Assembly: GCA_035291665.1 (NCBI GenBank)
Contig: DATDRP010000001.1
Location: forward strand, 146,952-210,951
DNA from: Patescibacteria group bacterium
Lineage (GTDB): Bacteria; Patescibacteriota; Microgenomatia; UBA8517
DNA: 64,000 bases
Direction: 5' to 3'
Shown here: in pieces, positions 11,890 through 61,843 of the stretch
How the letters are laid out: each line of letters starts with the position of its first letter
Position numbering within the stretch: the stretch's first letter is position 1
The notes under the pieces: model-generated
What the model was told of the DNA's origin: nothing
Databases searched by the model: none
The model's input: only the letters and a program-made list of their open reading frames with translations
Translations under genes and position numbers: made by a program

Positions 11890-11890
11890 T

Positions 11891-30579: not shown

Positions 30580-30602
30580 CATCTCACATACGTTCGATGT
30601 GA

Positions 30603-30893: not shown

Positions 30894-30896
30894 GAA

Positions 30897-48767: not shown

Positions 48768-49004
48768 ATAATAGATTTAATAATAAAAACTACCCAAAAG
48801 TCAAATGGATAGGATTAAAAAGAAAAAATATAATAAGAAACCAAAAGTGTCAAGAAAAACAGAATTGCAGGGAAAAAATACAATAGATATAAATTTAATT
48901 TTGAGGAATCTGTTTTTTGAATATGGATATTTTGATTCATATATTAATTATATCAGTTTTGGAAAAATATCACTTTTTGATGCGCGGTAGATGACTAAAT
49001 AAAA

Positions 49005-49220
49005 TTATTTATGTCTTTTTAAAAAGGAAAAAAAGGACTTTTTGGGAGCTAAGGAATCATGAGCCATTTGTAAAGCCAATTCTAATGCTTCACTGTCACC
49101 TTTATCGATTCTTTCAAGTAATGGGCCATAAAGTTCCGACACCATAGGACAATCAGGATTCTCAGATAATTCCTTTTGTATGGCAGAAAAAATTAAAGAT
49201 TTATCGATTTCAGGAATCAT
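49005..49220 (-). CDS. hypothetical small protein
   Basis: 71-aa ORF; no recognised motif. Confidence 0.3.
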   Translation of the reverse strand: MIPEIDKSLIFSAIQKELSENPDCPMVSELYGPLLERIDKGDSEALELALQMAHDSLAPKKSFFSFLKRHK

Positions 49221-49360
49221 ATCTTTTCGTTAATTACTTCATACAGATTGGATTTGTGCCAAATCAAACCCGGTTAAACAAGATTGACTTGGTGCCGGGA
49301 AGAGGACTTGTCATGGCAAAGCAAGATCCTGCTTTGCAGGAAACCTCCAACCAAAAGCTG

Positions 49361-49445
49361 TGCCGAGAGAGGGAGTTGAACCCACACGTCTTATAAAGAC
49401 ACAGGATCCTAAATCCTGCGCGTCTGCCAATTCCGCCATCCCGGC
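49361..49445 (-). tRNA. tRNA-Leu (anticodon TAG), type II
   Basis: Reverse complement folds: acceptor GCCGGGA/TCTCGGC, anticodon stem-loop CAGGA-TTTAGGA-TCCTG, long variable arm, T-loop TTCAACT. Confidence 0.8.
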
Positions 49446-49611
49446 TTATACAACTTCACTATTATATCAATACTAAAGTTTTTCCCAAAAAAAAGAGGCG
49501 CACCTTGGGGTACACCTCATAAAAAAATCCTAACGCCCATCTAATCTATAGGATTAGTAAGCCTCAGAATCTAGAGATACTATAACATAAGACTATAAGT
49601 ATGTCAATATA

Positions 49612-50364
49612 TTACTTCTTGCTTGCTAATATGAATAATGAAGGACCAAATCTTGTTTTAGAAAACATCCTTTGTAGATATTTTTCAAGATACAATAAAA
49701 TCTCAACGGGAAGTAGTTTTTTAAGAATTACGCTTCGTATATTGGACACGGATTTGATGTCAATTATGCGGAAACCGTTATTTTCCAAATGATTAAGGAC
49801 ATCATCCGGATGATAATTAAAAAAATCTATACAACCTGTATTAATAGATTTTTTACTCCGAATGTCTTTTGGAAATATATCAAGTAAAAAAGTCAAATTC
49901 CCATGACGCAATTCATTAAGAGCAGATTTAAAATGAAGTTTATTGGGAAATTCGAGAATCAGATGTCCATTATTTTTTAAAAGCCTGTTGATGATCCTGA
50001 ACGCATTGTCGAGATTTTTGACGTGATGCAACACTCGGATAAATAGAACCAGATCAACACTTGATGGCTTTATTTTTGTTTCTAAATTTTCTATTTTTGA
50101 ATGGATAAATTTAATTTTTTTGTTTTTGTATTTTTCTTTTGCTATGGAGAGTAATTTTGAAGAAGGGTCCGTGAGGTAAATTCGTTTGGCTCGGTGGATG
50201 TATGTGGGAATCAAACGCCCATACCCCGCGCCGATATCGGCAATGGTTCCGATAATTTTTAGTCTTTTGAAAAAATTTTCAAGTACAAAAACTTCTGACT
50301 TGTGTTCGTAGATTCTGGACTCCCAATATGATGGATAATCGAAATTATCGTAATGAGCAGACAT
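49612..50364 (-). CDS. class I SAM-dependent methyltransferase
   Basis: IADIGAGYGRLIPTY...RIYLTDPS; DLVLFIRVLHHV. Confidence 0.8.
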   Translation of the reverse strand: MSAHYDNFDYPSYWESRIYEHKSEVFVLENFFKRLKIIGTIADIGAGYGRLIPTYIHRAKRIYLTDPSSKLLSIAKEKYKNKKIKFIHSKIENLETKIKPSSVDLVLFIRVLHHVKNLDNAFRIINRLLKNNGHLILEFPNKLHFKSALNELRHGNLTFLLDIFPKDIRSKKSINTGCIDFFNYHPDDVLNHLENNGFRIIDIKSVSNIRSVILKKLLPVEILLYLEKYLQRMFSKTRFGPSLFILASKK

Positions 50365-50449
50365 ATTATGTGTATTGTAAGGATATATGATTGATGCAAA
50401 TTATGTCAAAAGTAATCATAGATAAGAAATATATTTGTGGCTGGAATTG

Positions 50450-51076
50450 CTATTCCATTTCAGACATGAAGCTTGAGACGCCCTCCGCCCAGCTCCCATT
50501 TGACAGAGGCGTATATTTTGTCATTATTTCTTCGGGTGTTGTGTAGCCTTCGTCCAAGTAATCATCCCGAATCCCCTTTGTTACAGTATTTATTCCTTCT
50601 TCAAATGAGGAAAAGCCGAGTGTTCCTCGACTGTGGATTCCCCACCCCCAGCAGTTGAATGTTCCTTCCGGATAGGCTTTACAAAGATTTGATTCCTGCT
50701 GGGCAATGGCAGTAACCAGTCTGAAATCTACATCGTATTTATCTGCCGTATTTACAATATAAAAAGAATACGGTTCCAGAATTGAATCATATCTTTGAAG
50801 ATATGATTTAACTATCTCCCCTCTTGCATCCGATTCTACCGGATAGCCATTTATGGTTTGTGCTGATGGAGGAAGTGAAGAAAAAATACGAATATTTTGT
50901 GAATTATCACCCAGTACAGAAGGTTTTTTTTCACTCGAAATGTTTAAAAGGGCGTATAAAGATAAAGCAATAACTACTGGTGTTATGAGAAAAAACATTG
51001 AAGCTGTTATAAGACTATTGATATAAGATAATCCCCTGAGGTGCTTAAAATTAAATATAGGCATTTCAAATATCAT
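50450..51076 (-). CDS. membrane-anchored lytic transglycosylase-like peptidoglycan hydrolase
   Basis: N-terminal TM; LVTAIAQQESNLCKAYPEGTFNCWGWGIHS resembles the SLT-domain catalytic ES motif. Confidence 0.5.
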   Translation of the reverse strand: MIFEMPIFNFKHLRGLSYINSLITASMFFLITPVVIALSLYALLNISSEKKPSVLGDNSQNIRIFSSLPPSAQTINGYPVESDARGEIVKSYLQRYDSILEPYSFYIVNTADKYDVDFRLVTAIAQQESNLCKAYPEGTFNCWGWGIHSRGTLGFSSFEEGINTVTKGIRDDYLDEGYTTPEEIMTKYTPLSNGSWAEGVSSFMSEME

Positions 51077-51301
51077 ATCAAAAATAAATAATTATTAATA
51101 ACGATAATGAAGTGTTGGAGGTTTTCAATTGTTGATATACCGGAAGGAATCGGTGATTTGATGTAAAGAAAATCAGCTTATTACCGAAGCAATCTTCTTT
51201 ATTAAAATATTAAATTATATGTGAGCTTGGAAGGATTCGACCAAGTACAACTTGGGTTCATTCCTGAAATCGCTTCCTGAATTCAATTTTGATTTTTGAG
51301 G

Positions 51302-51373
51302 TGATCCCGGAAGGAATCGAACCTTCGACCATCTCCTTAAGAGGGAGTTGCTCTACCGCTGAGCTACGGGACC
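51302..51373 (-). tRNA. tRNA-Lys (anticodon CTT)
   Basis: Reverse complement: GGTCCCG-TA-GCTC...CTCTTAA anticodon loop...GAAGG-TTCGATT-CCTTC-CGGGATC-A. Confidence 0.75.
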
Positions 51374-51386
51374 ATACTCCTCAGTA

Positions 51387-52640
51387 TTATAATTTCCGAA
51401 ACATTAAAATGCCAATATGACCGGGATCGATCCTCGTAAAGAGCGGGTATCCGATTTCGGCATCGATATCATAGCCTTCTATCTTTACAATATACAGATT
51501 ATCCATTTCCCAAATCATCTGACCGGTATTTTTCAGAATCGAAAGTTGGTAAGTCTTATCGTCTTTTTGAATCAAGTCGGGAGTAAGCTCGGCCACCATA
51601 GTTGCAGAGTTAATTCTTTTGGGATTACCGGATTTTTTTAGCATTTTTTGAATTTCCGAGTAAAAATCATAAAAGCTTCCATCAGCCTTTTTGAATGAGA
51701 AAGTATTGAAAGGTTCACTCTGATAATTCAACATGAATGGGGTTACCGCCACTATATTTGGATCTTTTAACCATTTTTCAAATGCCTGTGTATAGTATTT
51801 TTTCAAAACATCAACAGACAAAAATTTATTTTCACCCCCCACATCGTGCGTCCAGCCTGTTTCGGTTATAAATATGGGTAAATTCTTTTTAACGCTCAAG
51901 GTTTTTATAAATTCAATTTCGTTAATATAACCCGTAATACTAACAATCCCCGTTTTATCGGGGCTTTCGGAAAAATTCGGATTTGGATATGAGTGTGAAG
52001 TCCACCCGTCGATATGGTCAAAAATATCAGGAACTTTATCGTGCATTGACTTAATAAAATTTGTTTCGCTCATATGCGTTTTGTTGTTGGGAGAAGATGC
52101 ATCTAATCCTGCTGGAAGAACAAAAAAATCATCATCTTTTCTTTTAAGTTGTATTGAAAATTCTTTTAAGAATTCAGCATAACCTTGAGGATCAATTACA
52201 CCTCCCCATTCAGCTGCATGATTCGGTTCATTACCAACCACAACATACCTATTTTGAGTGACCCAATTAAGAGAGTCCAGGAAATTTACCCAGCCATCAA
52301 TATCGTCAGTTGTCGGTTTCAACCAGCCTGAACCCTCTTGTTTCGTAGCTATTCTTATAATCGGAATAAGATGAAGTTCCCGCATCCGGTCAAAAACATT
52401 CTGCCACCTGTTTACATCCCTCTCATCTGATCTTAGTACCATAGTCACATACCCCCATTCGCCACCGGAAGAATTCACCAACTTTGCAGCATCGATTAGA
52501 TCGTTTTCATCCTGAATATGGATACCGAAAATGTTATTTTCCGTCGAATGCGGATTAGTTACAGCAAAAGTTGATTTATATGATTTAAAAAATATTAGAG
52601 CAGCTGCAATTAATATTATTAATTTGTAAAATTTTTTCAT
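51387..52640 (-). CDS. secreted glycoside hydrolase (GH5/GH53-like TIM barrel)
   Basis: Signal peptide MKKFYKLIILIAAALIFF; catalytic-like motifs VVGNEPN (acid/base) and ITETGW (nucleophile). The track's 110-codon N-extension to 52970 is antisense to the tRNA-Leu genes and was trimmed. Confidence 0.65.
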   Translation of the reverse strand: MKKFYKLIILIAAALIFFKSYKSTFAVTNPHSTENNIFGIHIQDENDLIDAAKLVNSSGGEWGYVTMVLRSDERDVNRWQNVFDRMRELHLIPIIRIATKQEGSGWLKPTTDDIDGWVNFLDSLNWVTQNRYVVVGNEPNHAAEWGGVIDPQGYAEFLKEFSIQLKRKDDDFFVLPAGLDASSPNNKTHMSETNFIKSMHDKVPDIFDHIDGWTSHSYPNPNFSESPDKTGIVSITGYINEIEFIKTLSVKKNLPIFITETGWTHDVGGENKFLSVDVLKKYYTQAFEKWLKDPNIVAVTPFMLNYQSEPFNTFSFKKADGSFYDFYSEIQKMLKKSGNPKRINSATMVAELTPDLIQKDDKTYQLSILKNTGQMIWEMDNLYIVKIEGYDIDAEIGYPLFTRIDPGHIGILMFRKL

Positions 52641-52745
52641 ATTAACCATTATACAAAATCCAAAAGATATAAGGGCGTTATGTAATAAATTCCAACTGTA
52701 TTTGGTATAATACAGGTGAAGTTTTGCCCTTGTGGCGGAATTGGC

Positions 52746-52830
52746 AGACGCGCAGCGTTCAGAACGCTGTCTCGATTTCCGAGGTAGGGGTTCAAATCCT
52801 CTCAAGGGCACTCGATAAACTCGTGCTCCT
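52746..52830 (+). tRNA. tRNA-Leu (anticodon CAG), type II
   Basis: GCCCTTG...CAGCG-TTCAGAA-CGCTG...long variable arm...TTCAAAT...CAAGGGC-A. Confidence 0.85.
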
Positions 52831-52903
52831 GTTCGGGTTTGATAGTGCGAATTAAGGTAGATATTATGCACACAAATCCTCTCAAGGGCACCGTTATTTA
52901 TAC

Positions 52904-52985
52904 GCGCGGGTGGCGAAATTGGTAGACGCGCAGTCTTGAGGAGGCTGTGGAGTAATCCTTGCAGGTTCAAGTCCTGTCCCGCGCA
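52904..52985 (+). tRNA. tRNA-Leu (anticodon GAG), type II
   Basis: GCGCGGG...CAGTC-TTGAGGA-GGCTG...TTCAAGT...CCCGCGC-A. Confidence 0.85.
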
Positions 52986-53155
52986 CTAATACAAAATGAC
53001 GAAAACTTTCGTTGTTTTGTTTTAACGGATAGGAATTGAACCGAAGGTCATGGGTGAGCGAAAGCGAATCCCTGGATACCCTTGTGGTATTCAAGTCCTG
53101 TCCCGCGCACTAAATCGGTCGCTTGGCTCAGTTGGTCAGAGCATCTCGTTTATAA

Positions 53156-53229
53156 GGATCTATAGCTCAGTTGGTCAGAGCGTTCGGTTTACATCCGAAA
53201 GGTCGTAGGTTCGAACCCTACTAGATCCA
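53156..53229 (+). tRNA. tRNA-Val (anticodon TAC)
   Basis: GGATCTA-TA-GCTC-AGTTGGTCA-GAGC-G-TTCGG-TTTACAT-CCGAA...GTAGG-TTCGAAC-CCTAC-TAGATCC-A. Confidence 0.85.
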
Positions 53230-53372
53230 CATTATTATAGAAAGTCGGGGGAAATGACACCGAGTCTGACTCGGACGAATCCCTCAGCGACTACAAATAT
53301 GATAGAATTTGAAAGAAAATAGCCGAGGTACCCAAGTTTGTTATAAATGTTAAGAATTGGAGGTGACATAAA

Positions 53373-53585
53373 ATGGCAATACCAGAAAACAAGAGCAAAA
53401 TATTAAAAGTTAAGTATATTAGTTTCAGTATACTGCCAGGTCAAGAAATTAAAAGTTTTGAAGAACTTTCAAAATCTGAGCCAGGTACAAGCGTAATAGT
53501 TGAAGGTGGCGGAGATTTGGACTACCTATCTTCAGATTTACAGAATGTTAAAAAAACAAGTGAGGATGATACATCTCAGGGTTAA
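53373..53585 (+). CDS. hypothetical small acidic protein (70 aa) inside a duplicated tRNA-Phe 5' segment
   Basis: Strong SD GGAGGTGA 7 nt upstream; MAIPENKSKILKVKYISFSILPGQEIKSFEELSKSEPGTSVIVEGGGDLDYLSSDLQNVKKTSEDDTSQG; flanked by a tRNA-Phe 5' fragment (53322-53338) and intact tRNA-Phe. Confidence 0.5.
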   Translation: MAIPENKSKILKVKYISFSILPGQEIKSFEELSKSEPGTSVIVEGGGDLDYLSSDLQNVKKTSEDDTSQG

Positions 53586-53594
53586 ATATTATAA

Positions 53595-53667
53595 GCCGAG
53601 GTAGCCAAGTTGGTCACGGCGGGCGCCTGAAGAGCGTCAGATTCGGGTTCGATTCCTGACCTCGGCA
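53595..53667 (+). tRNA. tRNA-Phe (anticodon GAA)
   Basis: GCCGAGG...GGCGC-CTGAAGA-GCGTC...TCGGG-TTCGATT-CCTGA-CCTCGGC-A. Confidence 0.8.
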
Positions 53668-53674
53668 CATTTAC

Positions 53675-53746
<72 letters not shown>

Positions 53747-53751
53747 CAAAA

Positions 53752-54819
53752 TTAATTTATTTTTGTCTCTTCACCTTCGCTAGGAGTTATCGGCAGCCTT
53801 TCTTTACCTACTGCATCACGCATTGTATTAAGCAGCAGCCTTTTCAGAATTTCACTAAATTTGACTCCATACATATCAAGAATTGTTGAAATAGCTACAG
53901 CTGCCTCTTTTGGTGCAAATGCGGGATTACAATTTGAATCGATAAAAAAATATCTCCCCGACTGATCCAACCTGACATCAAATTTTCCGTAATCGTACAT
54001 TTTATTAACATCAAATGCTTTTTTTACATACTCTTTTAATATCGGATCTTCATACTTTTGATAATAGAATGCATCGTAAGATTTACTCATCCATTGGTCC
54101 TCAAATGTAGAAAATATATATTTTTCGTTTTCTTTATTGAATATTTTTTCTGCAAGATAAACTTTTTTGTTAAGTCCTTCAAGAAGCATGCATGTGATTT
54201 CCCTTCCCACAATAAACTCCTCAACGATAACGGATTGTTTGTATGTTGATATCAAAAACTTCAGTCTTTCTCTTAAGTGCTTTTCATTTTCCGATACAGC
54301 ATCTTGTGTAATTTCTACTCCTCCGTGAATTTCATTAAGTTTTGATATCAAAGGAAAACGAAGTGTTGGATCTTTCAAATCATTTGAAGTATTAAACAAT
54401 TGGAAGTTTGGAATAGGGACTCCGTTTTGCTGAAGAAGTTTTTTTATTAAAAATTTATTTGACGTTAAAGAAAGTCCCAGTATATCCCCGCCGGTATAAG
54501 GAATATCAAGAATTTCCAAAACTCCAGGAATTGATGAAGCAAGACTTTCAATTCCTTTAACTGAATCTACAAGATTGATTACCATATTAGGTTTATCTTT
54601 GCGAAGATGAGAGGAAAGATCCGAATTGCCGGGATATAATTTGACTTCAATAAAAAGTTTCTTTAAGTAGTCTGCAACCATTCTTGCATCATCTTCCGCA
54701 TCTTTTTCAGTAATATACTGTTCTTCCGTCGGGAAATATTCTCTTTTTACATCACTAAAAACTATCCCTACCTTTTTAGGTAATTCATAAGTTGAGGACA
54801 ACCCATTTTCTTGAACCAT
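53752..54819 (-). CDS. ATP-grasp enzyme, D-Ala--D-Ala ligase family-like
   Basis: 355 aa; N-domain VGIVFSD...; central ATP-grasp region EEFIVGREITCMLLEG; C-terminal FIDSNCNPAF resembles the Ddl (E/D)xN metal-binding loop. Confidence 0.6.
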   Translation of the reverse strand: MVQENGLSSTYELPKKVGIVFSDVKREYFPTEEQYITEKDAEDDARMVADYLKKLFIEVKLYPGNSDLSSHLRKDKPNMVINLVDSVKGIESLASSIPGVLEILDIPYTGGDILGLSLTSNKFLIKKLLQQNGVPIPNFQLFNTSNDLKDPTLRFPLISKLNEIHGGVEITQDAVSENEKHLRERLKFLISTYKQSVIVEEFIVGREITCMLLEGLNKKVYLAEKIFNKENEKYIFSTFEDQWMSKSYDAFYYQKYEDPILKEYVKKAFDVNKMYDYGKFDVRLDQSGRYFFIDSNCNPAFAPKEAAVAISTILDMYGVKFSEILKRLLLNTMRDAVGKERLPITPSEGEETKIN

Positions 54820-54942
54820 TATAATTTCTTAAACATTACTAAATTATTAGATTATTTGGTAAAATACAATAGCTAGATTATAAAACAAGAAGTGTATTTT
54901 AAGTTAGTAAACAAAAAATACAATAGTTAAATCTTTTCAATT

Positions 54943-55018
54943 GGCCCAGTAGCTCAATGGACAGAGCAGTTCCCTTCTAAGGAAAAGGTTGGTGGTTCAA
55001 CTCCACCCTGGGTCACCA
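54943..55018 (+). tRNA. tRNA-Arg (anticodon TCT), CCA encoded
   Basis: GGCCCAG-TA-GCTC-AATGGAC-AGAGC...GTTCC-CTTCTAA-GGAAA...GGTGG-TTCAACT-CCACC-CTGGGTC-A-CCA. Confidence 0.8.
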
Positions 55019-55125
55019 AGACTGATCGGTTCTTCAGAGGAAAATCAAAAAACATGTTCAACGTATCTAAGCCATTTTCAATTATATTTTGAAGACTAAT
55101 TTTTAAGGATTTGGATAATGTTATT

Positions 55126-56094
55126 TTAAAATAACCCCTCTTTCAGCTCGTTAATTGACAAAACAACTTCGAATGTTGTCATATCACCGACATTAACAAA
55201 AAGAGAAAGCGAATCTTTATTGTCTCTTTTTATTATTCCCCCACAGGAATAAACTACCCGCCGGTTAGAATGTAATTCACTGACCAGTGGCTTACCGTTT
55301 TCTTTGATAAAATTGTCAGGAGTAATAATAGGTTCTTCGGCTACTTTTACTTTAAATTTATTACCTTTACGGGTTAATTTTGCACGACCGATACTATATA
55401 CAAATTTTCTAATGCCGTGAATTTTTTGAATAGTAATACCATGAATAATAAATAAAGCCTCGTTTTCATTAATCCAAATTGGCGGCATAGTTGTACCTAT
55501 CCTCCATTTAGCCCAATATAAATTTTTCGGAAATACTATATCATCAAGTTTTCGCGGAAGCTGATGATGCAATGAAAATGCGAGAATCTTATGGTGATAT
55601 TTGAGACCTTCCGGACGGAAAAAATAAGTAACATCATCGATCGGCGTCGTATTTTTACCGGGTCCGAAAGTGTTGATAATTAAATAAGGAGGCAGTTCTT
55701 CATTCCATGAACTATGAGAGTCGATTTTAATGATTGCAGGGAAGGGAATCGGGCGTCCCTTTTTATCCCGTAATAATGCAGTGACCCCAATAAGAAGATT
55801 TTCATTTGGAAGCTCAATTACTCTGGGGTCTTCCAAATTTACTCCATCGTACACCGGTTTCCATATGAGGCGTTTATGAACTATATTTCCTGAAATATCC
55901 AATTCAAATAATTTTAATACTCCTGTATCGGGTTCTCCCCTGCTGCCCGGTCTTTTTACTTCTCTGCCTATGAAATAAACCGAATCATTATGAAGGTTTT
56001 GCCAGGCTGCCATATTATATCGGGAAACCCTGCTGCCCGGAAATAAATTTTTTATATTTTTAATTTTCATGGTGTTCTTCGACGATTTTATCAA
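55126..56094 (-). CDS. hypothetical protein, possible beta-propeller glycosidase/phosphorylase (GH130/DUF377-like)
   Basis: 322 aa; no firm motif; assignment rests mainly on the overlapping upstream GT4-GH fusion gene. Confidence 0.3.
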   Translation of the reverse strand: MIKSSKNTMKIKNIKNLFPGSRVSRYNMAAWQNLHNDSVYFIGREVKRPGSRGEPDTGVLKLFELDISGNIVHKRLIWKPVYDGVNLEDPRVIELPNENLLIGVTALLRDKKGRPIPFPAIIKIDSHSSWNEELPPYLIINTFGPGKNTTPIDDVTYFFRPEGLKYHHKILAFSLHHQLPRKLDDIVFPKNLYWAKWRIGTTMPPIWINENEALFIIHGITIQKIHGIRKFVYSIGRAKLTRKGNKFKVKVAEEPIITPDNFIKENGKPLVSELHSNRRVVYSCGGIIKRDNKDSLSLFVNVGDMTTFEVVLSINELKEGLF

Positions 56095-58267
56095 TATTGT
56101 TATATAAATTTAATTTGGATATTGCTATACGGGATAATAAATAAGAAACAAGAGATTCCGCTCCTTGATTTAAATTAATTCGGTCAGGATGCAGTCCGTC
56201 ATAACAACCGCCATTCTGATCATTATAAAGCGGGATTTGTAAACTATTATTTCCCAAAAACCAGCTAAAAGATATTCCAATTAGATTAAGATAATTTTCA
56301 TCGTTAGTTATTTTATGAGCAGTCGATAGAGCCATTATCATAGAAGCAGGATCTTCCGGCTGCTGATCAAAATTACTTCTTTTCCGGTTATTTTTATACC
56401 AAAATGAATGACCAATAGGAATATATCTATTTGATGAAAATGTTTTATTTATGAGAAATGTTAGTGAAGCCTTACCTTTTTCAGTATAGATTTTTGAATG
56501 TGTAATATTTCCGGCGATAAGCAAAGATTCAGGTATGATTGCATTATTGTATCCCAAATAATCAGCAAACCAATTCCAGGATTTTATTGAATTTTTTTTG
56601 TATTCCTTAATCAGTAAATCGGCATGCTCTATGATTAAAGCCAGAAGTTCATCCCGATACTCGGAATAAGCAGTTGAAACCATAGCTAAAGATTTAATAA
56701 TAAAAGCAGAAGAGCGTATATGTTTTAGTTTTCGGGTGACCGGAAGTGCTTTTAAAAATATATCTTTAGCGATATTCCGTAATAATTTTGTATTTTTTTT
56801 GTTACTCATAACTTCACTTACTGCCCATATTGCTCGTGCCGACGAATCTTCCAAATCCTCCGAACTGTTTTGAGTCGTGGCTTCTTTGTGTAAATAATCT
56901 AAATAATTTATAAAACTACCATCATCCTGCTGACACCTTTTAATGAATAAAAGATATTTCAATATTTGCGATTCAGAATACTTATAAGAATCAGATGTCA
57001 TCCAACTGCAGATAACCAACGCCCGCGCATTATCGTCCAAAGTGTACCCGAATTCTTTACTTGGTTTATCCAGTTTGGCAAATTGAAAAAGACCAAAATC
57101 ATCAGTCATATTATTTAAGTGTGTAAAGTTTATTGTTGGCAAAATATTTTGTTTTAGAAGCTCCGAATATTTTTGCGCAACATTGCTCCATAGCATCGGT
57201 CGTGTTTGTTTATAGGCATTCAAATGTTTTTTTTCAAGTTCGGATTTATCACTAAGAAGACCCTTTAATGCTCTCGCATATGCATTGGAATCTTTAATAG
57301 GCACAAGGATTCCGGAATCTTTATTTATAATTTCCTTTGCCTGGGCAAATTCAGTACTTACAACCGCTCTCCCTGTTCCCAATGCATAAGATAAAGTTCC
57401 GCTTACAGCCTGGTTGATATTAATTGAAGTGGATATATAAATATCTGTAGCTTTCAAAAATGTAAATAAATCAGATAGCGATAAATATTGATCATAAAAC
57501 CTAACGTGATTTTCTAATTTCAATTCAGTAACAAGTTCAATCAACCCGTTTCTGTAACTTTCACCTTCATCTCTTTTGACTATCGGATGGGTTTGTCCCA
57601 AAATAAGATAAAGTAATTTAGGTTGGGTTTTTATAAGTTCTGGAAGAGCTTTTATAACATATTCAATACCTTTTCCTCTACTCAGTAACCCAAATGTTGA
57701 CAGGATGCTCAAGTCTTCATTTAATTTTAGTTTTTGTTTTGCCTTTTTGGTAGTCGAAAAAGCAGTGAAGTGGATACCGTGAGGAATGACATAAACTTTC
57801 CCTTTTGATTTTGGGTATAGTATTTCTAATATACTTTTCGAACTTTCTGTTAATACAACAATTATGTTAGCCCTATTAATTATCCTTTCTGTTACATCTT
57901 TCATATGGGTAGATGGTGAAGGAAGTACAGTATGGAGTGTAACCAGTAACGGTTTTTTATAAGAATCGATAAATGAAAGAATGTATTTACCATCAATTCC
58001 GCCATAGATTCCGTATTCATGCTGAATCATTACCCCGCTTATTTCGGAGTCAGAATTAAAGCGTAATGCTAGTTTTTTATATTCTTTTTTGTTGTTCTGA
58101 TTAATAATCCATTCCACCTCCGAAGGATAATTGAATAAATCGAGAGGTGAAAAGTTCATCGCCGCAACTTTACATTGAATCTCATTACCCAGAAGCTTTT
58201 GACTTGAGTTTAATAAATCCTGGTTGAATGTTGCTATTCCGCATTCACGGGGAGGATATGTTCCCAT
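56060..58267 (-). CDS. glycosyltransferase family 4 fused to a C-terminal (alpha/alpha)6-barrel glycoside-hydrolase-like domain
   Basis: N-terminal GT4 MGTYPPRECGIATF... with RGKGIEYVIKAL...; C-terminal ~350 aa helical-repeat domain (DDNARALVICSWM...) like amylo-alpha-1,6-glucosidase/GDE_C. Confidence 0.6.
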   Translation of the reverse strand: MGTYPPRECGIATFNQDLLNSSQKLLGNEIQCKVAAMNFSPLDLFNYPSEVEWIINQNNKKEYKKLALRFNSDSEISGVMIQHEYGIYGGIDGKYILSFIDSYKKPLLVTLHTVLPSPSTHMKDVTERIINRANIIVVLTESSKSILEILYPKSKGKVYVIPHGIHFTAFSTTKKAKQKLKLNEDLSILSTFGLLSRGKGIEYVIKALPELIKTQPKLLYLILGQTHPIVKRDEGESYRNGLIELVTELKLENHVRFYDQYLSLSDLFTFLKATDIYISTSININQAVSGTLSYALGTGRAVVSTEFAQAKEIINKDSGILVPIKDSNAYARALKGLLSDKSELEKKHLNAYKQTRPMLWSNVAQKYSELLKQNILPTINFTHLNNMTDDFGLFQFAKLDKPSKEFGYTLDDNARALVICSWMTSDSYKYSESQILKYLLFIKRCQQDDGSFINYLDYLHKEATTQNSSEDLEDSSARAIWAVSEVMSNKKNTKLLRNIAKDIFLKALPVTRKLKHIRSSAFIIKSLAMVSTAYSEYRDELLALIIEHADLLIKEYKKNSIKSWNWFADYLGYNNAIIPESLLIAGNITHSKIYTEKGKASLTFLINKTFSSNRYIPIGHSFWYKNNRKRSNFDQQPEDPASMIMALSTAHKITNDENYLNLIGISFSWFLGNNSLQIPLYNDQNGGCYDGLHPDRINLNQGAESLVSYLLSRIAISKLNLYNNIDKIVEEHHEN

Positions 58268-58437
58268 GAAGACAACAGTAGGTTTTATTGTCAGCGTACT
58301 TATCCATTATACGCTTTTGGATCAAATTAGACTGAAATTAGTGTTTCAAAACCGATGTAATTAATAGAATAATTTACCTGCTGTAACATTATTCTTAAAT
58401 GTTTTTTGGAAATAACGATAGTTACAAATTAGTCAGA

Positions 58438-59580
58438 TCATATAAACCTGATCTTCATTCCGTCTTCAACTTTTGTTTTCAGTGAAACTTCCTGTCCGGG
58501 AAACTTTGACCCGGTTCCCCAAATTTTCGCTTTTATTATATTTTCGGAAAATTCTTCACCAATTTTCTCCAAAATTTTTCCAAGATCATAGCCATTTTTA
58601 ACCACCATTGGTTGATCATCTCCCGGCTCATCATCATGTTTAATCAAGTATATTCGAATAAGACCAAGTGTCTTCAATACCTCATCTTTTAATTCTTCAA
58701 TTCCGATTCCCATTTGAGCACTAACTTTAAAAATCTTCTGCAAATGAATCGATTCATTAGAAGTATCAGTTTGATCAATTGAATCATTGTTTTTTCGAGA
58801 CTCATCCAATAAATCAACTTTGTTCAAAAGATATATTGCCGGAATATAGACACGGTTTCTCGATGTTGCGTCAATTAATTGCTCAAGGTCAACCTTTTCA
58901 TTTATAGTAATTTCAGCATTTTTTATTCCCATTTCAGAAACAACTTCTTTTATCGTTTCCTTTCCGATTTCTTGATGATGATTTGAGTGAATTGTAATTC
59001 CGCCTTTGAGTTTTTTATCGATTAGTATTTGTGGTTTTTTCTTATTAATTCTGATCCCGTGTTTTTCCAAAGAATCCGTTATTTTTTCTAATGCATTCGG
59101 GAATTCGTTATCGGTCATAATTATCAAAAGATCAGCCCCCCGTACAACAGACAAAACTTCCCTGCCACGGCCTTTTCCGATTTCAGCTCCTTCAATAAGC
59201 CCCGGAACATCCAATATTTGAATTCTAGCGTCTTTATATACCATCATTCCGGGAATAACAGTAACGGTCGTAAAGGCATATGGTGCAACTTTACTTCTCG
59301 CATTAGTAAGCTGATTTATCAAAGTTGATTTTCCAACTGAAGGAGGACCAACCAAAACTACTGTAGCATCCCCTTGGTGTTTAACTGAATAACCTCCTCC
59401 GCCTCCGCCTTTTGATTTGATAACGCTCTCAAATTGTTTATCTTTGAGCCTCGAAAGTCTTGCCCGGAGCATCCCGATATGATGTTCAGTCCCTTTGTGA
59501 TAGGGAGTTTCCCTGATTTCTTTTTGAATTGACTCAATTTGTTCTTGAATTGTTGACATTTCAGTGAAATTATACCTCAT
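58438..59580 (-). CDS. DRG-family (developmentally regulated GTP-binding protein-like) GTPase with C-terminal TGS domain
   Basis: N-terminal helix IQKEIRETPYHKGTEHHIGMLRARLSRLK, G1 LVGPPSVGKSTL, G2 FTT, G3 DVPGLIEGA, DRG hallmark GKGRGREV, NKVD (G4), C-terminal TGS. Confidence 0.8.
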   Translation of the reverse strand: MRYNFTEMSTIQEQIESIQKEIRETPYHKGTEHHIGMLRARLSRLKDKQFESVIKSKGGGGGGYSVKHQGDATVVLVGPPSVGKSTLINQLTNARSKVAPYAFTTVTVIPGMMVYKDARIQILDVPGLIEGAEIGKGRGREVLSVVRGADLLIIMTDNEFPNALEKITDSLEKHGIRINKKKPQILIDKKLKGGITIHSNHHQEIGKETIKEVVSEMGIKNAEITINEKVDLEQLIDATSRNRVYIPAIYLLNKVDLLDESRKNNDSIDQTDTSNESIHLQKIFKVSAQMGIGIEELKDEVLKTLGLIRIYLIKHDDEPGDDQPMVVKNGYDLGKILEKIGEEFSENIIKAKIWGTGSKFPGQEVSLKTKVEDGMKIRFI

Positions 59581-59682
59581 ATTGAGTATAATTAGCGGAT
59601 AAGGAAAGTATTTATCTGATTTTAAGGATATTTAGCCACTGTGATGAAATGGATATCACATCGGTCAGATAATCAAAATATA

Positions 59683-59712
59683 TGTGCTCGTAGCTCAATG
59701 GATAAGCAGAGC
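59683..59712 (+). pseudogene. tRNA 5' fragment (resembles the 5' half of the downstream tRNA-Arg)
   Basis: GTGCTCGTAGCTCAATGGATAAGCAGAGC parallels GCCCGTGTAGCTTAACGGATAAAGCAGCGG of tRNA-Arg(TCG), but no T-arm follows. Confidence 0.35.
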
Positions 59713-59772
59713 TTGGCCAAACTACGTTTGGTAGATCATCTGTCTTAGACATTGATGATGACAAGAAAATTA

Positions 59773-59844
59773 GCCCGTGTAGCTTAACGGATAAAGCAGC
59801 GGTCTTCGGAACCGCTGATGAGGGTTCAATTCCCCCCACGGGCA
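59773..59844 (+). tRNA. tRNA-Arg (anticodon TCG)
   Basis: GCCCGTG-TA-GCTT-AACGGATA-AAGC-A-GCGGT-CTTCGGA-ACCGC...TTCAATT...CACGGGC-A. Confidence 0.8.
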
Positions 59845-59897
59845 CATGAATTATTTGGAAAGCAATTGTAGAGTATAGTTAAAAAATTGAATATTAG

Positions 59898-59982
59898 GCC
59901 GAGGTGGCGGAATGGCAGACGCGCAGGACTTAAAATCCTGTTTCTGAAATCAGAAGTGAGGGTTCGAGTCCCTCCCCCGGCA
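59898..59982 (+). tRNA. tRNA-Leu (anticodon TAA), type II
   Basis: GCCGAGG...CAGGA-CTTAAAA-TCCTG...long variable arm...GAGGG-TTCGAGT-CCCTC-CCCCGGC-A. Confidence 0.8.
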
Positions 59983-60011
59983 CACCTGCATAGCAGGTTT
60001 CAGTCTGGCTA

Positions 60012-60272
60012 ATGTACATTGTTTACTTGTTACAAAGCAAAACTAATCCAGAAAAGAGTTACGTCGGTCGAACTATTAAGCCTATTCTTGTAAGATTAGA
60101 TGAACATAATAAAGGTTTAACAAAATCAACCAAACCTTATATTCCATGGAGATTGGTTTATTATGAACAGTTTTATTGTAAACTCTGTTCAGATAAACGA
60201 GAGATTTATTTGAAATCAGGTAGGGGGTTTAGACTAAGAAAATTAATATTGATCAACCAAAATATGTTGTAG
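60012..60272 (+). CDS. GIY-YIG nuclease family protein (UPF0213-like)
   Basis: MYIVYLLQSKTNPEKSYVGRTIKPILVRLDEHNKG...PWRLVYYEQF; begins 30 nt after tRNA-Leu(TAA). Confidence 0.7.
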   Translation: MYIVYLLQSKTNPEKSYVGRTIKPILVRLDEHNKGLTKSTKPYIPWRLVYYEQFYCKLCSDKREIYLKSGRGFRLRKLILINQNML

Positions 60273-60292
60273 TTGAATTCTGCTTTGCAGAA

Positions 60293-60365
60293 CGGAGTGT
60301 GGCTCAGCTGGTAGAGCGCCGCGTTTGGGACGCGGAGGTCCCCGGTTCGAATCCGGGCACTCCGA
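60293..60365 (+). tRNA. tRNA-Pro (anticodon TGG)
   Basis: CGGAGTG-TG-GCTC-AGCTGGTA-GAGC-G-CCGCG-TTTGGGA-CGCGG...CCCGG-TTCGAAT-CCGGG-CACTCCG-A. Confidence 0.85.
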
Positions 60366-60505
60366 CAAGTGAAAATCGATAGTGTCCGGGTTCGATGGTG
60401 CAACTTAAGGAAAAATTATGCACGGCGAATCCCTGTCTGCCGACAGGCAGGCGGGCACTCCGACTGATAGATTTTGTTTTGATATAATATATTTTGACAA
60501 TTTAA

Positions 60506-60576
60506 GCGGGTGTAGTTGATCGGCTCAACACCTCCCTTCCAAGGAGGAAAGACGGGTTCAACTCCCGTCACCCGCT
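60506..60576 (+). tRNA. tRNA-Gly (anticodon TCC)
   Basis: GCGGGTG-TA-GTTG-ATCGGCT-CAAC-A-CCTCC-CTTCCAA-GGAGG...ACGGG-TTCAACT-CCCGT-CACCCGC-T. Confidence 0.85.
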
Positions 60577-60656
60577 CAAAAATCTGAGATTAAATAGAAG
60601 AACAACGTATTATTTTGTTTTAAGTCTTAAGTTTTCTGAAGGTTGCGAAATGAAGA

Positions 60657-61571
60657 TTATTTCCTGACTCCGATAATTACCTGGACGTCAAATGCAGAAT
60701 CTTTATTCAATTCACTTGATTTTGATGCTACTTGGAAAGTATCTGAAAGAGCTTCTTTCAAATCTTCATAAACTGAATCGGGAACTCCATCTTTCAACTT
60801 AATTTCAGCATCTTCATAATTATAATTGTCAGCGTTACCTGCTGTAACAGCGTCAAACTCAAATTCTTTAAGAAGATCCTTTGCAACACCTGCTTCTCCC
60901 GGAACACCTGAACCGTTAAGAATACTTAATTTATACTTTGAATAATCAACTTCACTCGATGTTTCTGCTGGTGTGGGAGTGGCGGTTGGTTCAGTTTCAA
61001 CCGGTTTTGGTTCTTCTTTATTTTCATCAGTTGTTTTTGTAGCAATACTTTTCTGATAGTAAATTACTCCTCCAGCAATTGCGGCAACAAGAGAAAGGAT
61101 CAGTAGAATGATTAAGAATATTTTGAAAAAACTTCTGTCTTTTTTTGGTTGGTTGGTCGGTTCAGATTCATTATAATTCTCGATCCATTTATTTACTTCT
61201 TCAGCCGATGATTTTGGTTTTTCATCAGTAGTTTCAGTAGTCGCCTCTTCGCTTGGAGGGTTTGAAGTGGGATCTTCTTTTTTATCTGAGTCGATTAATG
61301 AAAACGAGGTAACGCCAGTTGGTGAGGAAGTTTCAGTTTTGACATCCGAATCTGAAGATAAAATATCAGTTTCGGGTTTCAGATCAACCTCTTTTACATC
61401 TTTAGATGATTCAGGTTCGACCTTTTTGCTATCAGCTTTTGGAGATTTTGTTGAAGTTTTAACAGTTACAACTTCTTCTTTTACGTCTGATTTATCAACT
61501 ATAACCGAATCTTCATCACCGGGAACTTCAATTTCAACTTCTTCTTTATCTTTTTTGTCAGCAGATACCAT
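60657..61571 (-). CDS. membrane-anchored protein with C-terminal LytR_C domain
   Basis: Acidic low-complexity N-region, one TM (FFKIFLIILLILSLVAAIAGGVIYY), C-terminal LSILNGSGVPGEAGVAKDLLKEFEFDAVTAGNADNYNYE. Confidence 0.6.
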   Translation of the reverse strand: MVSADKKDKEEVEIEVPGDEDSVIVDKSDVKEEVVTVKTSTKSPKADSKKVEPESSKDVKEVDLKPETDILSSDSDVKTETSSPTGVTSFSLIDSDKKEDPTSNPPSEEATTETTDEKPKSSAEEVNKWIENYNESEPTNQPKKDRSFFKIFLIILLILSLVAAIAGGVIYYQKSIATKTTDENKEEPKPVETEPTATPTPAETSSEVDYSKYKLSILNGSGVPGEAGVAKDLLKEFEFDAVTAGNADNYNYEDAEIKLKDGVPDSVYEDLKEALSDTFQVASKSSELNKDSAFDVQVIIGVRK

Positions 61572-61765
61572 GTCTATTGTTTATTTTGTAAGATATAGAA
61601 TGTTTTGTCAACATATAACTGTAGGATCAAATATGTTAAAATATCAATGTAAATAGTTAGAACTTTGAAAAAATTGGAAATTGAACATCATGAATTGATC
61701 ACTTGAAGTTTGTAATTTCATAATTTTATTAGAAATTAAGAATTAAAAATTAGTAATTTGTTTAT

Positions 61766-61839: not shown

Positions 61840-61843
61840 CCTA

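Follow-up and report, generated by a model that had tools for sequence, protein, structure and literature searches.

The stretch of DNA analyzed here, hereafter the window, is 64,000 nucleotides (64 kb) long and belongs to the chromosome of a Candidatus Woesebacteria, a groundwater bacterium of the candidate phyla radiation (CPR) with a tiny genome. Its flanking proteins are 80% identical to those of Woesebacteria metagenome-assembled genomes and its gene content is cellular; a phage origin, our first guess in view of the many tRNAs and the GIY-YIG genes, was rejected, as no phage relatives were found apart from tRNA matches. Five contigs that stem from other samples and other assemblers match the window with 100.000% identity over positions 43752-64000, or over the part that each contig covers, and its sequence is therefore not an assembly artefact. 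The window holds 15 tRNAs, several of which are accompanied by pieces of tRNA genes and by inserted DNA (Table 1).

Table 1. Positions of the tRNA genes, tRNA fragments, hairpin elements and GIY-YIG cassettes discussed in the text
Feature	Position	Strand	Content or basis
Second GIY-YIG cassette, tRNA-Val(GAC)/tRNA-Ala(GGC)	30581-30896	+	Open frame 30603-30890; HMM match E = 8e-19
Insert 3' of tRNA-Leu(TAG)	49292-49359	-	Hairpin, then diverged Leu 3' end
Insert 3' of tRNA-Lys(CTT), two Lys 3'-end copies	51140-51299	-	Self-copy scan, allele comparison
Intact tRNA-Leu(CAG)	52726-52811	+	ARAGORN; Rfam tRNA model, 53.9 bits
Element A: 61-nt insert and 19-nt exact Leu(CAG) 3'-end copy	52812-52891	+	Exact repeat
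Intact tRNA-Leu(GAG)	52904-52986	+	ARAGORN; Rfam tRNA model
AT-rich hairpin then T run, terminator-like; start of insert after Leu(GAG)	52992-53023	+	Read from the letters
Element C	53024-53113	+	Exact repeat; fold -32.2 kcal/mol, z = -3.09
Half-tRNA assigned to an old tRNA-Val(TAC), positions 1-36, broken in the anticodon	53117-53152	+	Match to L029
Intact tRNA-Val(TAC), L003-type allele	53156-53230	+	ARAGORN; Rfam tRNA model, 75.8 bits
3' part assigned to the old tRNA-Val(TAC): variable loop, T arm, acceptor 3' strand	53243-53294	+	L029 match
tRNA-Phe 5' fragment, 16/17 nt	53322-53338	+	Upstream of intact tRNA-Phe
Orphan 70-aa ORF with Shine-Dalgarno, between Phe fragment and tRNA-Phe	53373-53585	+	In inserted DNA
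Intact tRNA-Phe(GAA) and tRNA-Gly(GCC)	53595-53747	+	ARAGORN; Rfam tRNA model
tRNA 5' fragment: acceptor strand and D arm	59684-59740	+	D-loop insertion inside
GIY-YIG cassette, tRNA-Leu(TAA)/tRNA-Pro	59984-60292	+	86-aa ORF 60012-60272; terminal hairpins 59985-59997 and 60278-60292
Element B	60367-60464	+	A-type hairpin core; degenerate 20-nt palindrome (60432-60451); 13-nt exact Pro 3'-end copy (60452-60464)

The ends of tRNA genes are duplicated

Four of the 15 tRNAs are followed, within 150 nt, by an exact copy of 13 to 24 nt of their own 3' end. The 19 nt CAAATCCTCTCAAGGGCAC that end tRNA-Leu(CAG) (52793-52811) recur at 52873-52891, the 24 nt TTCAAGTCCTGTCCCGCGCACTAA at the end of tRNA-Leu(GAG) (52966-52989) recur at 53090-53113, and 13 nt of tRNA-Pro(TGG), CGGGCACTCCGAC (60354-60366), recur at 60452-60464. 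These three repeats were part of the original prediction, as were two 5' fragments, that of tRNA-Phe, with one mismatch in 17 nt, and that near 59683; all five are present, with the coordinates of both leucine copies, and the start of the second 5' fragment (59684), corrected here. The duplications are real and far beyond chance: when exact copies of at least 13 nt were sought up to 400 nt downstream and the flanks were shuffled 500 times, a mean of 0.002 tRNAs had a copy of their 3' end, against the 4 observed, and antisense controls gave 0.

A scan of 148 tRNAs of the window and its relatives revealed a polarity. Copies of a gene's own 3' end were found 10 times downstream (8 distinct events) and 0 times upstream, and those of its own 5' end 5 times upstream and 0 times downstream.

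In sister species the tRNAs stand in the same order (Leu-CAG, Leu-GAG, Val-TAC, Phe, Gly-GCC; also Leu-TAA, Pro, Gly-TCC), with spacers of 0 to 32 nt as against 92, 169, 309 and 139 nt in the window, which means that the fragment-bearing DNA of the window was inserted. The site of element A is empty in three related loci (L003, L001 and L002, spacers of 3 to 32 nt), the position of element C is occupied by 8 nt in L003 and 0 nt in L001, the Pro-Gly(TCC) spacer, which is the site of element B, measures 12 nt in L003, and the Val-Phe spacer is 80 nt long in L003 versus 364 nt in the window. Overall, inserts at the tRNAs of the window span 61 to 364 nt, and 61 to 124 nt separate the repeats. The comparison with related strains proposed in the original prediction gave a divided answer: presence and absence are seen between species, but the five same-population contigs, all 100% identical, display neither polymorphism nor empty sites.

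Some fragments come from older alleles

Fragments of 5' ends are present as well as fragments of 3' ends, their breaks are located in tRNA loops, and some of them are remains of a different, older allele and not copies of the neighboring gene. The clearest case surrounds tRNA-Val(TAC). The half-tRNA that precedes it had been described as fused directly to this gene, with a TAT-like loop; it does adjoin the gene, but it is not a tRNA-Ile(TAT), since it is 94% identical over 36 nt (E = 3e-12) to positions 1-36 of the tRNA-Val(TAC) of L029, and judged by this match it is an older allele of tRNA-Val(TAC). The complementary part is found beyond the intact gene: its CGAATCCCTCAGCGAC is identical, 16/16, to positions 57-72 of the same L029 tRNA, its acceptor strand AGCGACT pairs with GGTCGCT of the 5' half, and a hairpin, CCGAGTCTGACTCGG (53260-53274), stands in place of the T-loop TT (fold of the whole 3' part, z = -2.66). 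The intact tRNA-Val is therefore nested in the anticodon loop of the old gene, whose anticodon stem is destroyed, its 3' strand being absent. This missing strand, and the lack of a group I match, led us to reject a tRNA intron; a bulge-helix-bulge intron was likewise rejected, the internal loops beside the T-loop hairpins being 3x1 or 3x2.

Downstream, the 70-aa ORF is called as a gene in public assemblies; it has no Pfam match, and no homologue other than itself was found in 5.8 billion proteins or in related loci.

Two tRNAs on the minus strand, absent from the original prediction, also have 3'-end copies, tRNA-Lys two and tRNA-Leu(TAG) one. The first Lys copy (51242-51221) is of a different allele, resembling that of L026, and has the hairpin CCCAAGTTGTACTTGG directly before CGAATCC; the second (51152-51140) is exact over 13 nt. 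After tRNA-Leu(TAG), a hairpin, CCTGCAAAGCAGG (49340-49328), is followed by a Leu 3' end, CAAGTCCTCTTCCCGGCAC (49310-49292), 89% identical to the tRNA-Leu(TAG) of L020. Among relatives, L002 carries a new tRNA-Arg(TCT) beside an old copy riddled with insertions, and in L059 and L060 whole units are tandemly duplicated.

Hairpins and a palindrome accompany the fragments

The fragments are not the bare end-duplications that had been assumed: in most of them a hairpin has been inserted, or the fragment itself is folded into one. Element A is one long hairpin with the Leu(CAG) copy as its 3' strand (-22.7 kcal/mol, z = -2.35), and it belongs to a conserved family, here called A-type, whose core is common to five elements at five different tRNAs; element B is another member (-39.8 kcal/mol, z = -4.08). 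Among 120 permutations of 5' and 3' arms, the cognate combination pairs best; 79.6% of cells are paired as against 34 to 57% with slid partners, and the helix GGTTYG/CRAATC is 93% paired with two compensated pairs. Compensatory and G-U pairs work on the sense strand only. In two of the five elements the fold is not better than that of shuffled sequence, and decay is visible in element F, which has a substitution, and in element B, into which a 20-nt palindrome is inserted. An nhmmer search of about 640 kb with the core found no members beyond the known five, so that the evidence from covariation is thin, and the core pattern had 0 matches in viral contigs.

In element C, the T loop and T stem of Leu(GAG) reappear nearly unchanged in inverted orientation, GGATAGGAATTGAA (53027-53040), together with a T-arm-like piece in which an GCGAAAGC hairpin precedes CGAATCCCT, and with the exact 24-nt Leu(GAG) copy. 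The hairpin at the start of this insert falls under the G+C threshold of the terminator scan.

Several readings of the hairpins were tried and rejected. The motif "hairpin + CGAA + TCCCT" recalls J4/2-P2 of HDV and suggested an HDV-like or theta ribozyme; no Rfam ribozyme match was obtained over 49000-62500 up to E = 5, and in a double pseudoknot P1-P2-P3-P1-P4-P2, threaded by hand onto 53231-53295, only 7 to 8 nt would lie between the candidate P2 and P4. A coding role of the hairpin loop for a short peptide (TTAAGG...ATG in elements A and B) was dismissed, since the reading frame varies from element to element and an ATG is missing from G and F, and so was a promoter in the A-type core, the single 10/12 match in element A being conserved in none of the others. 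A decayed mini-tRNA as source of the A-type 5' arm would explain part of the outer helix and fails for GGTTYG/CRAATC, because the T loops are not palindromic and the 5' strand of this helix is complementary to them instead of being copied from them.

Other hairpins are inserted within displaced fragments, at the T-stem/T-loop border (before C56) or in the D loop. They occur in at least 10 fragments, differ in sequence, and are present in displaced copies only. One of them, AAGCAGAGCTTGGCCAAACTACGTTTGG, lies in the D loop of the 5' fragment at 59684 (about 59705-59731) and belongs to a family that is also found in L026 and L027, where the hairpin is compensated (CCAAAC/GTTTGG versus CCAGGC/GCCTGG).

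The palindrome in element B is a degenerate form of a perfect 20-nt palindrome, CCTGCCTGCCGGCAGGCAGG. Exact copies of the latter occur in L060, L061 and 35 unrelated viral-contig stretches, and degenerate ones in the window (two copies), L023 and L059. This palindrome is shared by genomes of 38 to 68% G+C, and once, in the viral-contig stretches, lies at the center of an older degenerate copy of itself. Its insertions in L060, L061, L059 and element B are precise and without a duplicated flank. Neither a candidate transposase nor a description of this palindrome in the literature was found.

Small GIY-YIG genes adjoin tRNAs

The original prediction also pointed to GIY-YIG genes in the tRNA clusters and to the lack of an integrase, and both statements are borne out. 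Tables of Pfam matches to called or long ORFs contain no tyrosine or serine recombinase and no integrase in the 64-kb window. Its two GIY-YIG genes are both flush against tRNAs. The association of these genes with the tRNAs is a strong one. In the related loci scanned, every small GIY-YIG ORF with a tRNA in the locus lies 0 to 11 nt from a tRNA, and most further homologues adjoin a tRNA or tRNA fragment, with the exception of L063. In seven related loci (L033, L062, L060, L059, L061, L095 and L023) the ORF is bounded by a tRNA on one side and on the other by a duplicate of an end of this same tRNA, and the sole gene of the longer inserts in relatives is a GIY-YIG gene. We found no description of tRNA-associated GIY-YIG genes of Patescibacteria in the literature.

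A GIY-YIG cassette follows tRNA-Leu(TAA) in the window, with tRNA-Pro next, and its orthologues do so in L057, likewise with tRNA-Pro next, and in L058, with tRNA-Arg next; the Leu(TAA)-Pro site is empty (6 nt) in L003 and L026. The 86-aa ORF of this cassette matches Pfam PF01541 (E = 1.3e-10) and is UPF0213/SLX1-like in a profile search. The frame of the second cassette lacks an in-frame start codon (ATG, GTG or TTG) in the vicinity of its beginning. More generally, the proteins are single-domain, 80 to 97 aa long, match PF01541 with E = 1.3e-10 to 2e-17, and share invariant Y, Y, G, R, H and E residues in 12 members. Their profile retrieves structures of UPF0213 (E = 1e-17), the structure-specific endonuclease SLX1 (E = 7e-7) and I-TevI (E = 3e-4), and Pfam and profile searches detect the catalytic domain only, without a separate DNA-binding domain.

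In the window itself, both cassettes are without flanking tRNA repeats, and the repeat-flanked inserts are without a GIY-YIG ORF. The link between the two hence rests on the relatives and on two marginal similarities: the hairpin of the Leu(TAG) insert agrees at 12/13 positions with the terminal hairpin 59985-59997 of the first cassette (8 of 2000 shuffles scored as high), and the 5' flank of the second cassette resembles the core of element B (22 of 2000). Homology of the A-type elements with the cassette flank of L020 was not significant in a shuffle test.

Origin of the fragments

The fragments are probably the remains of repeated, nuclease-driven breakage and replacement of tRNA genes. A tRNA gene would be cut in a loop, that is, in the anticodon loop, the D loop or at the T-stem/T-loop border. 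The gene being essential and present only once, survival would depend on repair that yields a functional tRNA again. Repair might supply a complete new gene, or else only the 5' or 3' part that is missing, and would leave the displaced old piece on the outer side; 3' fragments would thereby always come to lie downstream, and 5' fragments upstream. Most fragments that are identical to the neighboring gene start exactly where this replacement model predicts. The incoming DNA would be a small cassette with a single-domain UPF0213/SLX1-like GIY-YIG nuclease as its sole gene, and elements A and B and the remnant at Leu(TAG), which are the shortest inserts, could be ORF-less derivatives or leftovers of such cassettes. 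We infer that the GIY-YIG protein makes the cut and that repair copies the cassette; the miniature nuclease genes between tRNAs are the likely culprits of the breakage. The displaced fragment would be free to gain small hairpin or palindrome insertions, and the local hairpin around several fragments may neutralize the scar, by keeping the duplicated 3' strand from competing during folding of the precursor tRNA.

A more ambitious form of this model is a doubtful one in our view. It supposes an undescribed two-part system of the CPR, in which hairpin or palindrome elements such as CCTGCCTGCCGGCAGGCAGG enter the apical loops of DNA hairpins (the arms of tRNA genes) precisely and without target duplication, and SLX1-like GIY-YIG nucleases cut the loops and spread with the replacement tRNA, whole or partial. 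If true, a selfish nuclease would invade an essential RNA gene without an intron.

Cause and effect could also be reversed, with a hairpin insertion killing the tRNA first and duplication rescuing it afterwards. Tiny hairpin or palindromic DNA elements would then enter the apical loops of tRNA-gene arms and inactivate the gene, the duplications and the GIY-YIG genes being a secondary rescue or response. Insertion of differing sequences at the same structural sites in the 10 or more fragments, the precise arrival of CCTGCCTGCCGGCAGGCAGG in tRNA fragments of several genomes without target duplication, and its spread through the 35 viral-contig stretches are all compatible with such elements. We nevertheless find this order of events unlikely: restriction of the insertions to displaced copies is equally expected of neutral later additions, a transposase is lacking, and the starting points of most neighbor-identical fragments are those of the replacement model.

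Alternatively, the A-type hairpins might be functional RNA of tRNA operon transcripts, for instance a processing or insulator structure or a small ribozyme at the 3' trailer, and their tRNA-like 3' strand would be a function, not a scar. They begin directly after the tRNA, where theta ribozymes are also known (PMC10879173), and they combine a conserved core with a structure that is maintained on the sense strand. This reading looks quite improbable, as no Rfam match appears even at E = 5, an HDV-like topology could not be threaded by hand, none of the elements recurs at the orthologous site of another species, the copies are decaying, and two of the five do not surpass shuffled sequence in their folds.

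The original prediction saw typical scars of site-specific integration or excision or of homing-endonuclease activity, and empty sites in sister species do make them insertion scars. That these are attL/attR-type scars of integrase-mediated elements or prophages, afterwards almost wholly deleted, is very unlikely. Direct repeats of a tRNA 3' end with the intact tRNA on the left are the classical signature of such elements, whose tRNA fragments are common in prokaryotes (PMC9897764), and the repeats begin in the T loop, a usual crossover region. The window, however, has no recombinase in 64 kb and only 61 to 124 nt between repeats, the longer inserts of relatives have GIY-YIG as sole gene, 5' fragments and breaks in the anticodon and D loops also occur, and five different tRNAs would not have ended up with the same core if near-total deletions had occurred independently at each. 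Finally, plain tandem duplication by replication slippage or unequal crossing-over of similar tRNA genes, followed by decay and with neither mobile element nor nuclease, is hardly credible: tRNA clusters are repeat-rich and whole units stand in tandem in L059 and L060, but several fragments derive from another allele than the adjacent gene, inserts hold foreign DNA (GIY-YIG ORFs, the orphan ORF, the conserved hairpin core), and one Val gene encloses another.

Homing endonucleases normally reach essential genes inside self-splicing introns or inteins, whereas an integrase brings along the 3' end of its tRNA target and so restores it. A cassette made of a nuclease only seems to merge both ideas, breaking the tRNA gene and surviving via the replacement copy that accompanies it, which would be a third way into essential genes. 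Breakage and replacement of tRNA genes would explain the unusually dynamic tRNA clusters of streamlined CPR genomes, the movement of tRNA alleles between species, and the presence of small GIY-YIG genes at tRNAs. The fragments are also a risk for annotation, since they can be miscalled, as exemplified by the half-Val that resembles a tRNA-Ile(TAT). The conserved hairpins and the 20-nt palindrome are concrete candidate substrates for the UPF0213 nuclease family.

Comparison with known systems

Yeast mitochondrial GC clusters, fungal double-hairpin elements and bacterial REP and PATE sequences are small mobile GC-rich palindromes. Like the present palindrome, they are short, GC-rich and dispersed over AT-rich genomes, frequently in the neighborhood of tRNA and homing-endonuclease genes; unlike them, the palindrome described here is a perfect 20-mer, inserted precisely and without target-site duplication in genomes of 38 to 68% G+C, with no transposase found. 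Theta (HDV-like) ribozymes 3' of phage tRNAs (PMC10879173) are also structured elements that start immediately after the tRNA 3' end, but the elements studied here have neither a match to an Rfam ribozyme nor a double-pseudoknot topology, and their 3' strand repeats the tRNA end. Group I introns interrupt tRNA genes of Patescibacteria at position 35/36 (PMC13011429), and the old tRNA-Val is, in the same phylum, interrupted at about this anticodon position. The interrupting DNA is, in contrast, a complete tRNA-Val gene that matches no group I model, and the anticodon stem is destroyed.

As with integrative elements (PMC9897764), an intact tRNA is followed by inserted DNA and by a direct repeat of its 3' end, exact over 13 to 24 nt here, and the target tRNA is restored by sequence on the incoming DNA. 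The differences are that no integrase is present, that inserts measure 61 to 364 nt, that fragments of both 5' and 3' ends occur, that breaks are located in the anticodon, D and T loops, and that the fragments have hairpin insertions.

SegB of phage T4 is a GIY-YIG enzyme encoded in a tRNA cluster that recognizes the T-psi-C motif of tRNA genes, its 27-bp site including an 11-bp T-psi-C motif (PMC2330249). Unlike SegB and I-TevI, the proteins described here consist of the UPF0213/SLX1-like catalytic domain only, without a DNA-binding domain that would give specificity. The host is a bacterial chromosome and not a phage, and insertion is accompanied by nested genes and by a duplication, in part or in full, of the target tRNA. 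In both systems, a GIY-YIG gene is lodged between tRNAs and is present or absent in relatives with the same tRNA order, neighboring tRNA genes travel with the nuclease gene, and many of the breaks and insertions reported here fall in the T-psi-C region, which is part of the SegB site.

Copies of tRNA ends beside their own genes

Every repeated tRNA end named in the original prediction is present in the sequence (see table), and such copies far exceed chance: for 4 of the 15 tRNAs of the window, 13 nt or more of the gene's own 3' end is repeated within 400 nt downstream, compared to a mean of 0.002 in 500 shuffles of the flanks. Beyond the repeats already listed, two copies follow tRNA-Lys (minus strand) and a diverged one follows tRNA-Leu(TAG). 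The 15 genes were detected with ARAGORN; 13 of them lie between 49 and 62 kb, and Rfam confirms all 13 tRNAs in the scanned stretch 49000-62500. Over all overlaps, the window is matched with 100.000% identity by five contigs obtained from other samples and with other assemblers, so that the arrangement is no misassembly; it is fixed in the population sampled. Two independent assemblies (L054, L055) end exactly at the start of tRNA-Phe (window 53598 and 53609), probably because of the repeated Phe 5' end, and these breaks could hide population heterogeneity at that position.

A phage origin was first suspected and then rejected, as phage matches are only to the tRNAs themselves. The ATP-grasp protein encoded beside the tRNA cluster is 74-80% identical to Candidatus Woesebacteria proteins, and the remaining genes are cellular (aminoacyl-tRNA synthetases, IF3, L20/L35, RecG, penicillin-binding protein, type IV pilus), which together indicate that the window is chromosome of a CPR/Patescibacteria bacterium. 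The type IV pilus cluster, with several N_methyl pilins, a prepilin peptidase and PilM, is typical for CPR and unrelated to the finding.

Locations of the features in the window and in comparison loci (L-numbers: loci from genomes of relatives or, for some, viral-contig stretches)
Feature	Location	Description
tRNA-Leu(CAG) 3' end	52793-52811 and 52873-52891	19 nt
tRNA-Leu(GAG) 3' end	52966-52989 and 53090-53113	24 nt
tRNA-Pro 3' end	60354-60366 and 60452-60464	13 nt
tRNA-Phe 5' end	53322-53338	16/17 nt
Old tRNA-Val(TAC), 5' piece	53117-53152
Old tRNA-Val(TAC), matched part of 3' piece	53276-53291	CGAATCCCTCAGCGAC
Intact tRNA-Val(TAC)	53156-53230
ORF, 70 aa	53373-53585	strong Shine-Dalgarno
ATP-grasp gene	53752-54819
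Type IV pilus cluster	~3200-12300
GIY-YIG ORF, Val(GAC) cassette	30603-30890	HMM match, E = 8e-19
GIY-YIG ORF, Leu(TAA) cassette	60012-60272	Pfam PF01541
Leu(TAA) cassette end hairpins	59985-59997, 60278-60292	CCTGCnnnGCAGG and TTCTGCTTTGCAGAA
Exact 20-nt palindrome	L060 2750-2769; L061 378-397; L095 515-534; L088 2284-2303; also L064-L098	CCTGCCTGCCGGCAGGCAGG
Degenerate 20-nt palindrome	60432-60451 (element B); 9808-9828; L059; L023
D-loop insertion	~59705-59731; L026, about 2305-2331; L027, upstream of both tRNAs
Promoter-like match, element A	52839-52867	TTGATA, 17 nt, TATTAT (10/12)
Old tRNA-Arg(TCT)	L002 7967-8160
~70-nt sequence, two copies	L002 ~2440-2370 (-) and 12760-12830 (+)

Insertion and polarity

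The empty sites sought by strain comparison were not seen among the five strain-level contigs, all identical, but they were seen in the sister species represented by L003 and L026, where the same tRNA gene order is found with tight spacers. From Leu-CAG to Leu-GAG, Leu-GAG to Val-TAC, Val-TAC to Phe, Phe to Gly-GCC, Leu-TAA to Pro and Pro to Gly-TCC, these measure 3, 8, 80, 1, 6 and 12 nt, respectively, against 92, 169, 364, 6, 309 and 139 nt in the window. Judged by this comparison, the DNA bearing the tRNA fragments is inserted. The insert upstream of tRNA-Phe contains the 70-aa ORF, which matches no Pfam family and, among 5.8 billion proteins, has no homologue but itself.

With all tRNAs masked, we scanned the window and 51 related loci (148 tRNAs) for places, up to 400 nt from a tRNA, where 12 nt or more of either of its own ends is repeated exactly. 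Copies of 3' ends were all downstream (10 versus 0 upstream; 8 distinct events, one genome having been fetched three times), copies of 5' ends were all upstream (5 versus 0 downstream), and antisense controls gave none. This polarity is that expected where a gene is split and incoming DNA supplies the missing part.

Older genes around intact ones

A tRNA 5' half with a TAT-like loop is indeed present beside tRNA-Val(TAC), but its identity as Ile(TAT) is ruled out by a 94% match to positions 1-36 of the tRNA-Val(TAC) of a comparison locus, L029, and by a 3' partner identical (16/16) to positions 57-72 of the same tRNA. The acceptor strands of the two pieces pair (GGTCGCT with AGCGACT), and the intact gene between them is of the allele type found in L003. 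L029-like halves flanking an L003-type gene indicate that the intact Val interrupts an older Val(TAC), now disrupted, within the anticodon loop at about position 35/36.

Two other fragments are closer to alleles of other loci than to the gene that they adjoin: Lys fragment 1 (51242-51221, minus strand) to that of L026, and the Leu(TAG) fragment to that of L020. In L002, a new Arg(TCT) gene adjoins an old copy whose D, anticodon and T loops have each received a separate hairpin, that of the anticodon loop following position 37; the old copy has lost its acceptor 5' strand and stands directly after the divergent intact gene. The likeness of fragments to sister-species alleles indicates that some events were whole-gene replacements by a foreign allele; in others, just an end of the resident gene was duplicated.

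Hairpins and palindromes in displaced pieces

Five elements, A and B of the window, E and G (L020/L023) and F (L002), share a core, GGTTYGAT-GYGC...GCAC-CRAATCC, followed by the 3' end of the upstream tRNA (Leu-CAG, Pro, Gly-GCC, Leu-GAG and a Leu-like end). Each is predicted to fold into a long hairpin whose 3' strand is the tRNA-end copy (z-scores against shuffles: -2.4 for A, -4.1 for B, and -0.2, -2.9 and -1.1 for the others). Cognate pairing of 5' and 3' arms ranks first among 120 permutations, and 79.6% of alignment cells are paired, versus 34-57% with partners slid (the palindrome in B taken out beforehand). The helix GGTTYG/CRAATC is 93% paired, with two compensated positions (TTCG/CGAA, TTTG/CAAA, CTTG/CAAG). 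Where T loops are not palindromic, the 5' strand complements the loop and does not copy it, so the pairing may be more than tRNA inheritance, which five sequences can only suggest.

Unrelated hairpins stand directly before T-loop C56 in other fragments (element D, Lys fragment 1, the inner part of element C at 53024-53113, the old Arg copy of L002, and L060). A second family, AAGCnnAGCTTGGCCA(AAC...GTT or GGC...GCC)TGG, is inserted in the D loop of displaced 5' fragments, and its stem is compensated between species (CCAAAC/GTTTGG versus CCAGGC/GCCTGG). The sigma-70-like promoter match of element A is not kept in the other elements with its core. The repeated sequence of L002, GGATATGCTAAAATAAGCnGCTGGAAnTTyCTTAAnATTGGTTCAATCyTAGGAAAC, combines a promoter-like TGCTAAAAT with a long palindromic stem; one copy lies upstream of a tRNA-like 3' end, followed by element F.

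A perfect 20-nt palindrome is found inside displaced tRNA pieces, in the T arm (L060) or D loop (L061, L095), and these pieces lie beside GIY-YIG genes. Its insertion is precise, with no duplicated flank, in L059, L060, L061 and element B, as judged only where tRNA context sets the uninterrupted sequence. The exact palindrome also occurs in 35 viral-contig stretches (38-68% G+C), often among short tandem repeats and once in a tRNA-Met variable loop; in L068 (L090 is its reverse complement) it is central in an older degenerate copy. We found no mention of it in the literature searched.

GIY-YIG cassettes

As predicted, GIY-YIG genes reside in the tRNA clusters: two small ORFs, each wedged between two tRNAs. 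No ATG, GTG or TTG lies in frame close to the N-terminal motif of the Val(GAC) one, which may have decayed into a pseudogene or may start at an unusual codon. When the window and the related genome loci were scanned with an HMM, all hits with a tRNA in the locus were 0-11 nt from one; most homologues fetched later adjoin a tRNA or tRNA fragment, L063 being the exception. Orthologues of the Leu(TAA) cassette occur in L057 and L058; L003 and L026 lack it.

In relatives, the ORF is flanked by self-copies of the tRNA. The order is tRNA-Arg(TCT), GIY-YIG and a decayed Arg copy with a terminal 17-nt exact repeat in L033; tRNA 3' end, GIY-YIG and a 14-nt repeat in L062; tRNA-Leu(CAA), terminator, GIY-YIG, T-arm-to-3'-end copy, terminator and a second GIY-YIG in L060; and a tRNA 5' half ending in the anticodon loop, GIY-YIG and an intact tRNA in L059, L061, L095 and L023. 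Cassette ends are short hairpins or inverted repeats (window, L057, L058, L033, L062; TATCyTTC... terminal inverted repeats in L033 and L062) that recall transposon ends. The proteins, of 80-97 aa, comprise nothing beyond the catalytic domain; a profile built from 12 of them matched UPF0213 structures best (E = 1e-17), then the SLX1 structure-specific endonuclease (E = 7e-7) and I-TevI (E = 3e-4).

Proposed mechanism and known systems

In what we consider the best reading, a nuclease would cut tRNA genes within their loops, and survival would depend on the installation of a whole or partial replacement copy; the nuclease gene would be carried along with the replacement, displaced old pieces would persist as scars, and the shortest inserts would be ORF-less cassette derivatives or leftovers. 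This last step is suggested by two likenesses: the terminal hairpin CCTGCATAGCAGG of the Leu(TAA) cassette has a counterpart, CCTGCAAAGCAGG, in the Leu(TAG) remnant (a score reached by 8 of 2000 shuffles), and the Val(GAC) cassette has a 5' flank like the core of B (22 of 2000). We infer that, within the precursor, the hairpin would keep the duplicated 3' strand out of competition with the true one; of hairpin insertion and duplication, either may be the cause of the other.

The predicted homing-endonuclease origin agrees with GIY-YIG ORFs adjoining tRNAs and their self-copies, both the nuclease activity and its target being putative. The other predicted origin, integrase scars, is less well supported: inserted DNA does stand at tRNAs, but the window has no recombinase gene, in line with the absence of an integrase stated in the original prediction. 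Breakage by a nuclease is likewise better supported than readings of the hairpins as functional RNA or of the fragments as plain tandem duplications.

It is already known that GIY-YIG genes can stand free in tRNA clusters and that mobile DNA can leave tRNA fragments behind. New are the joint occurrence of both on a CPR chromosome, a nuclease that is SLX1-like with a single domain, the partial or whole tRNA duplication restoring the target, in one case with a gene lying inside the one that it succeeded, and hairpin and palindrome insertions specific to loops. The closest described system is T4 SegB, a GIY-YIG homing endonuclease from a tRNA cluster whose site includes the T-psi-C motif (PMC2330249).
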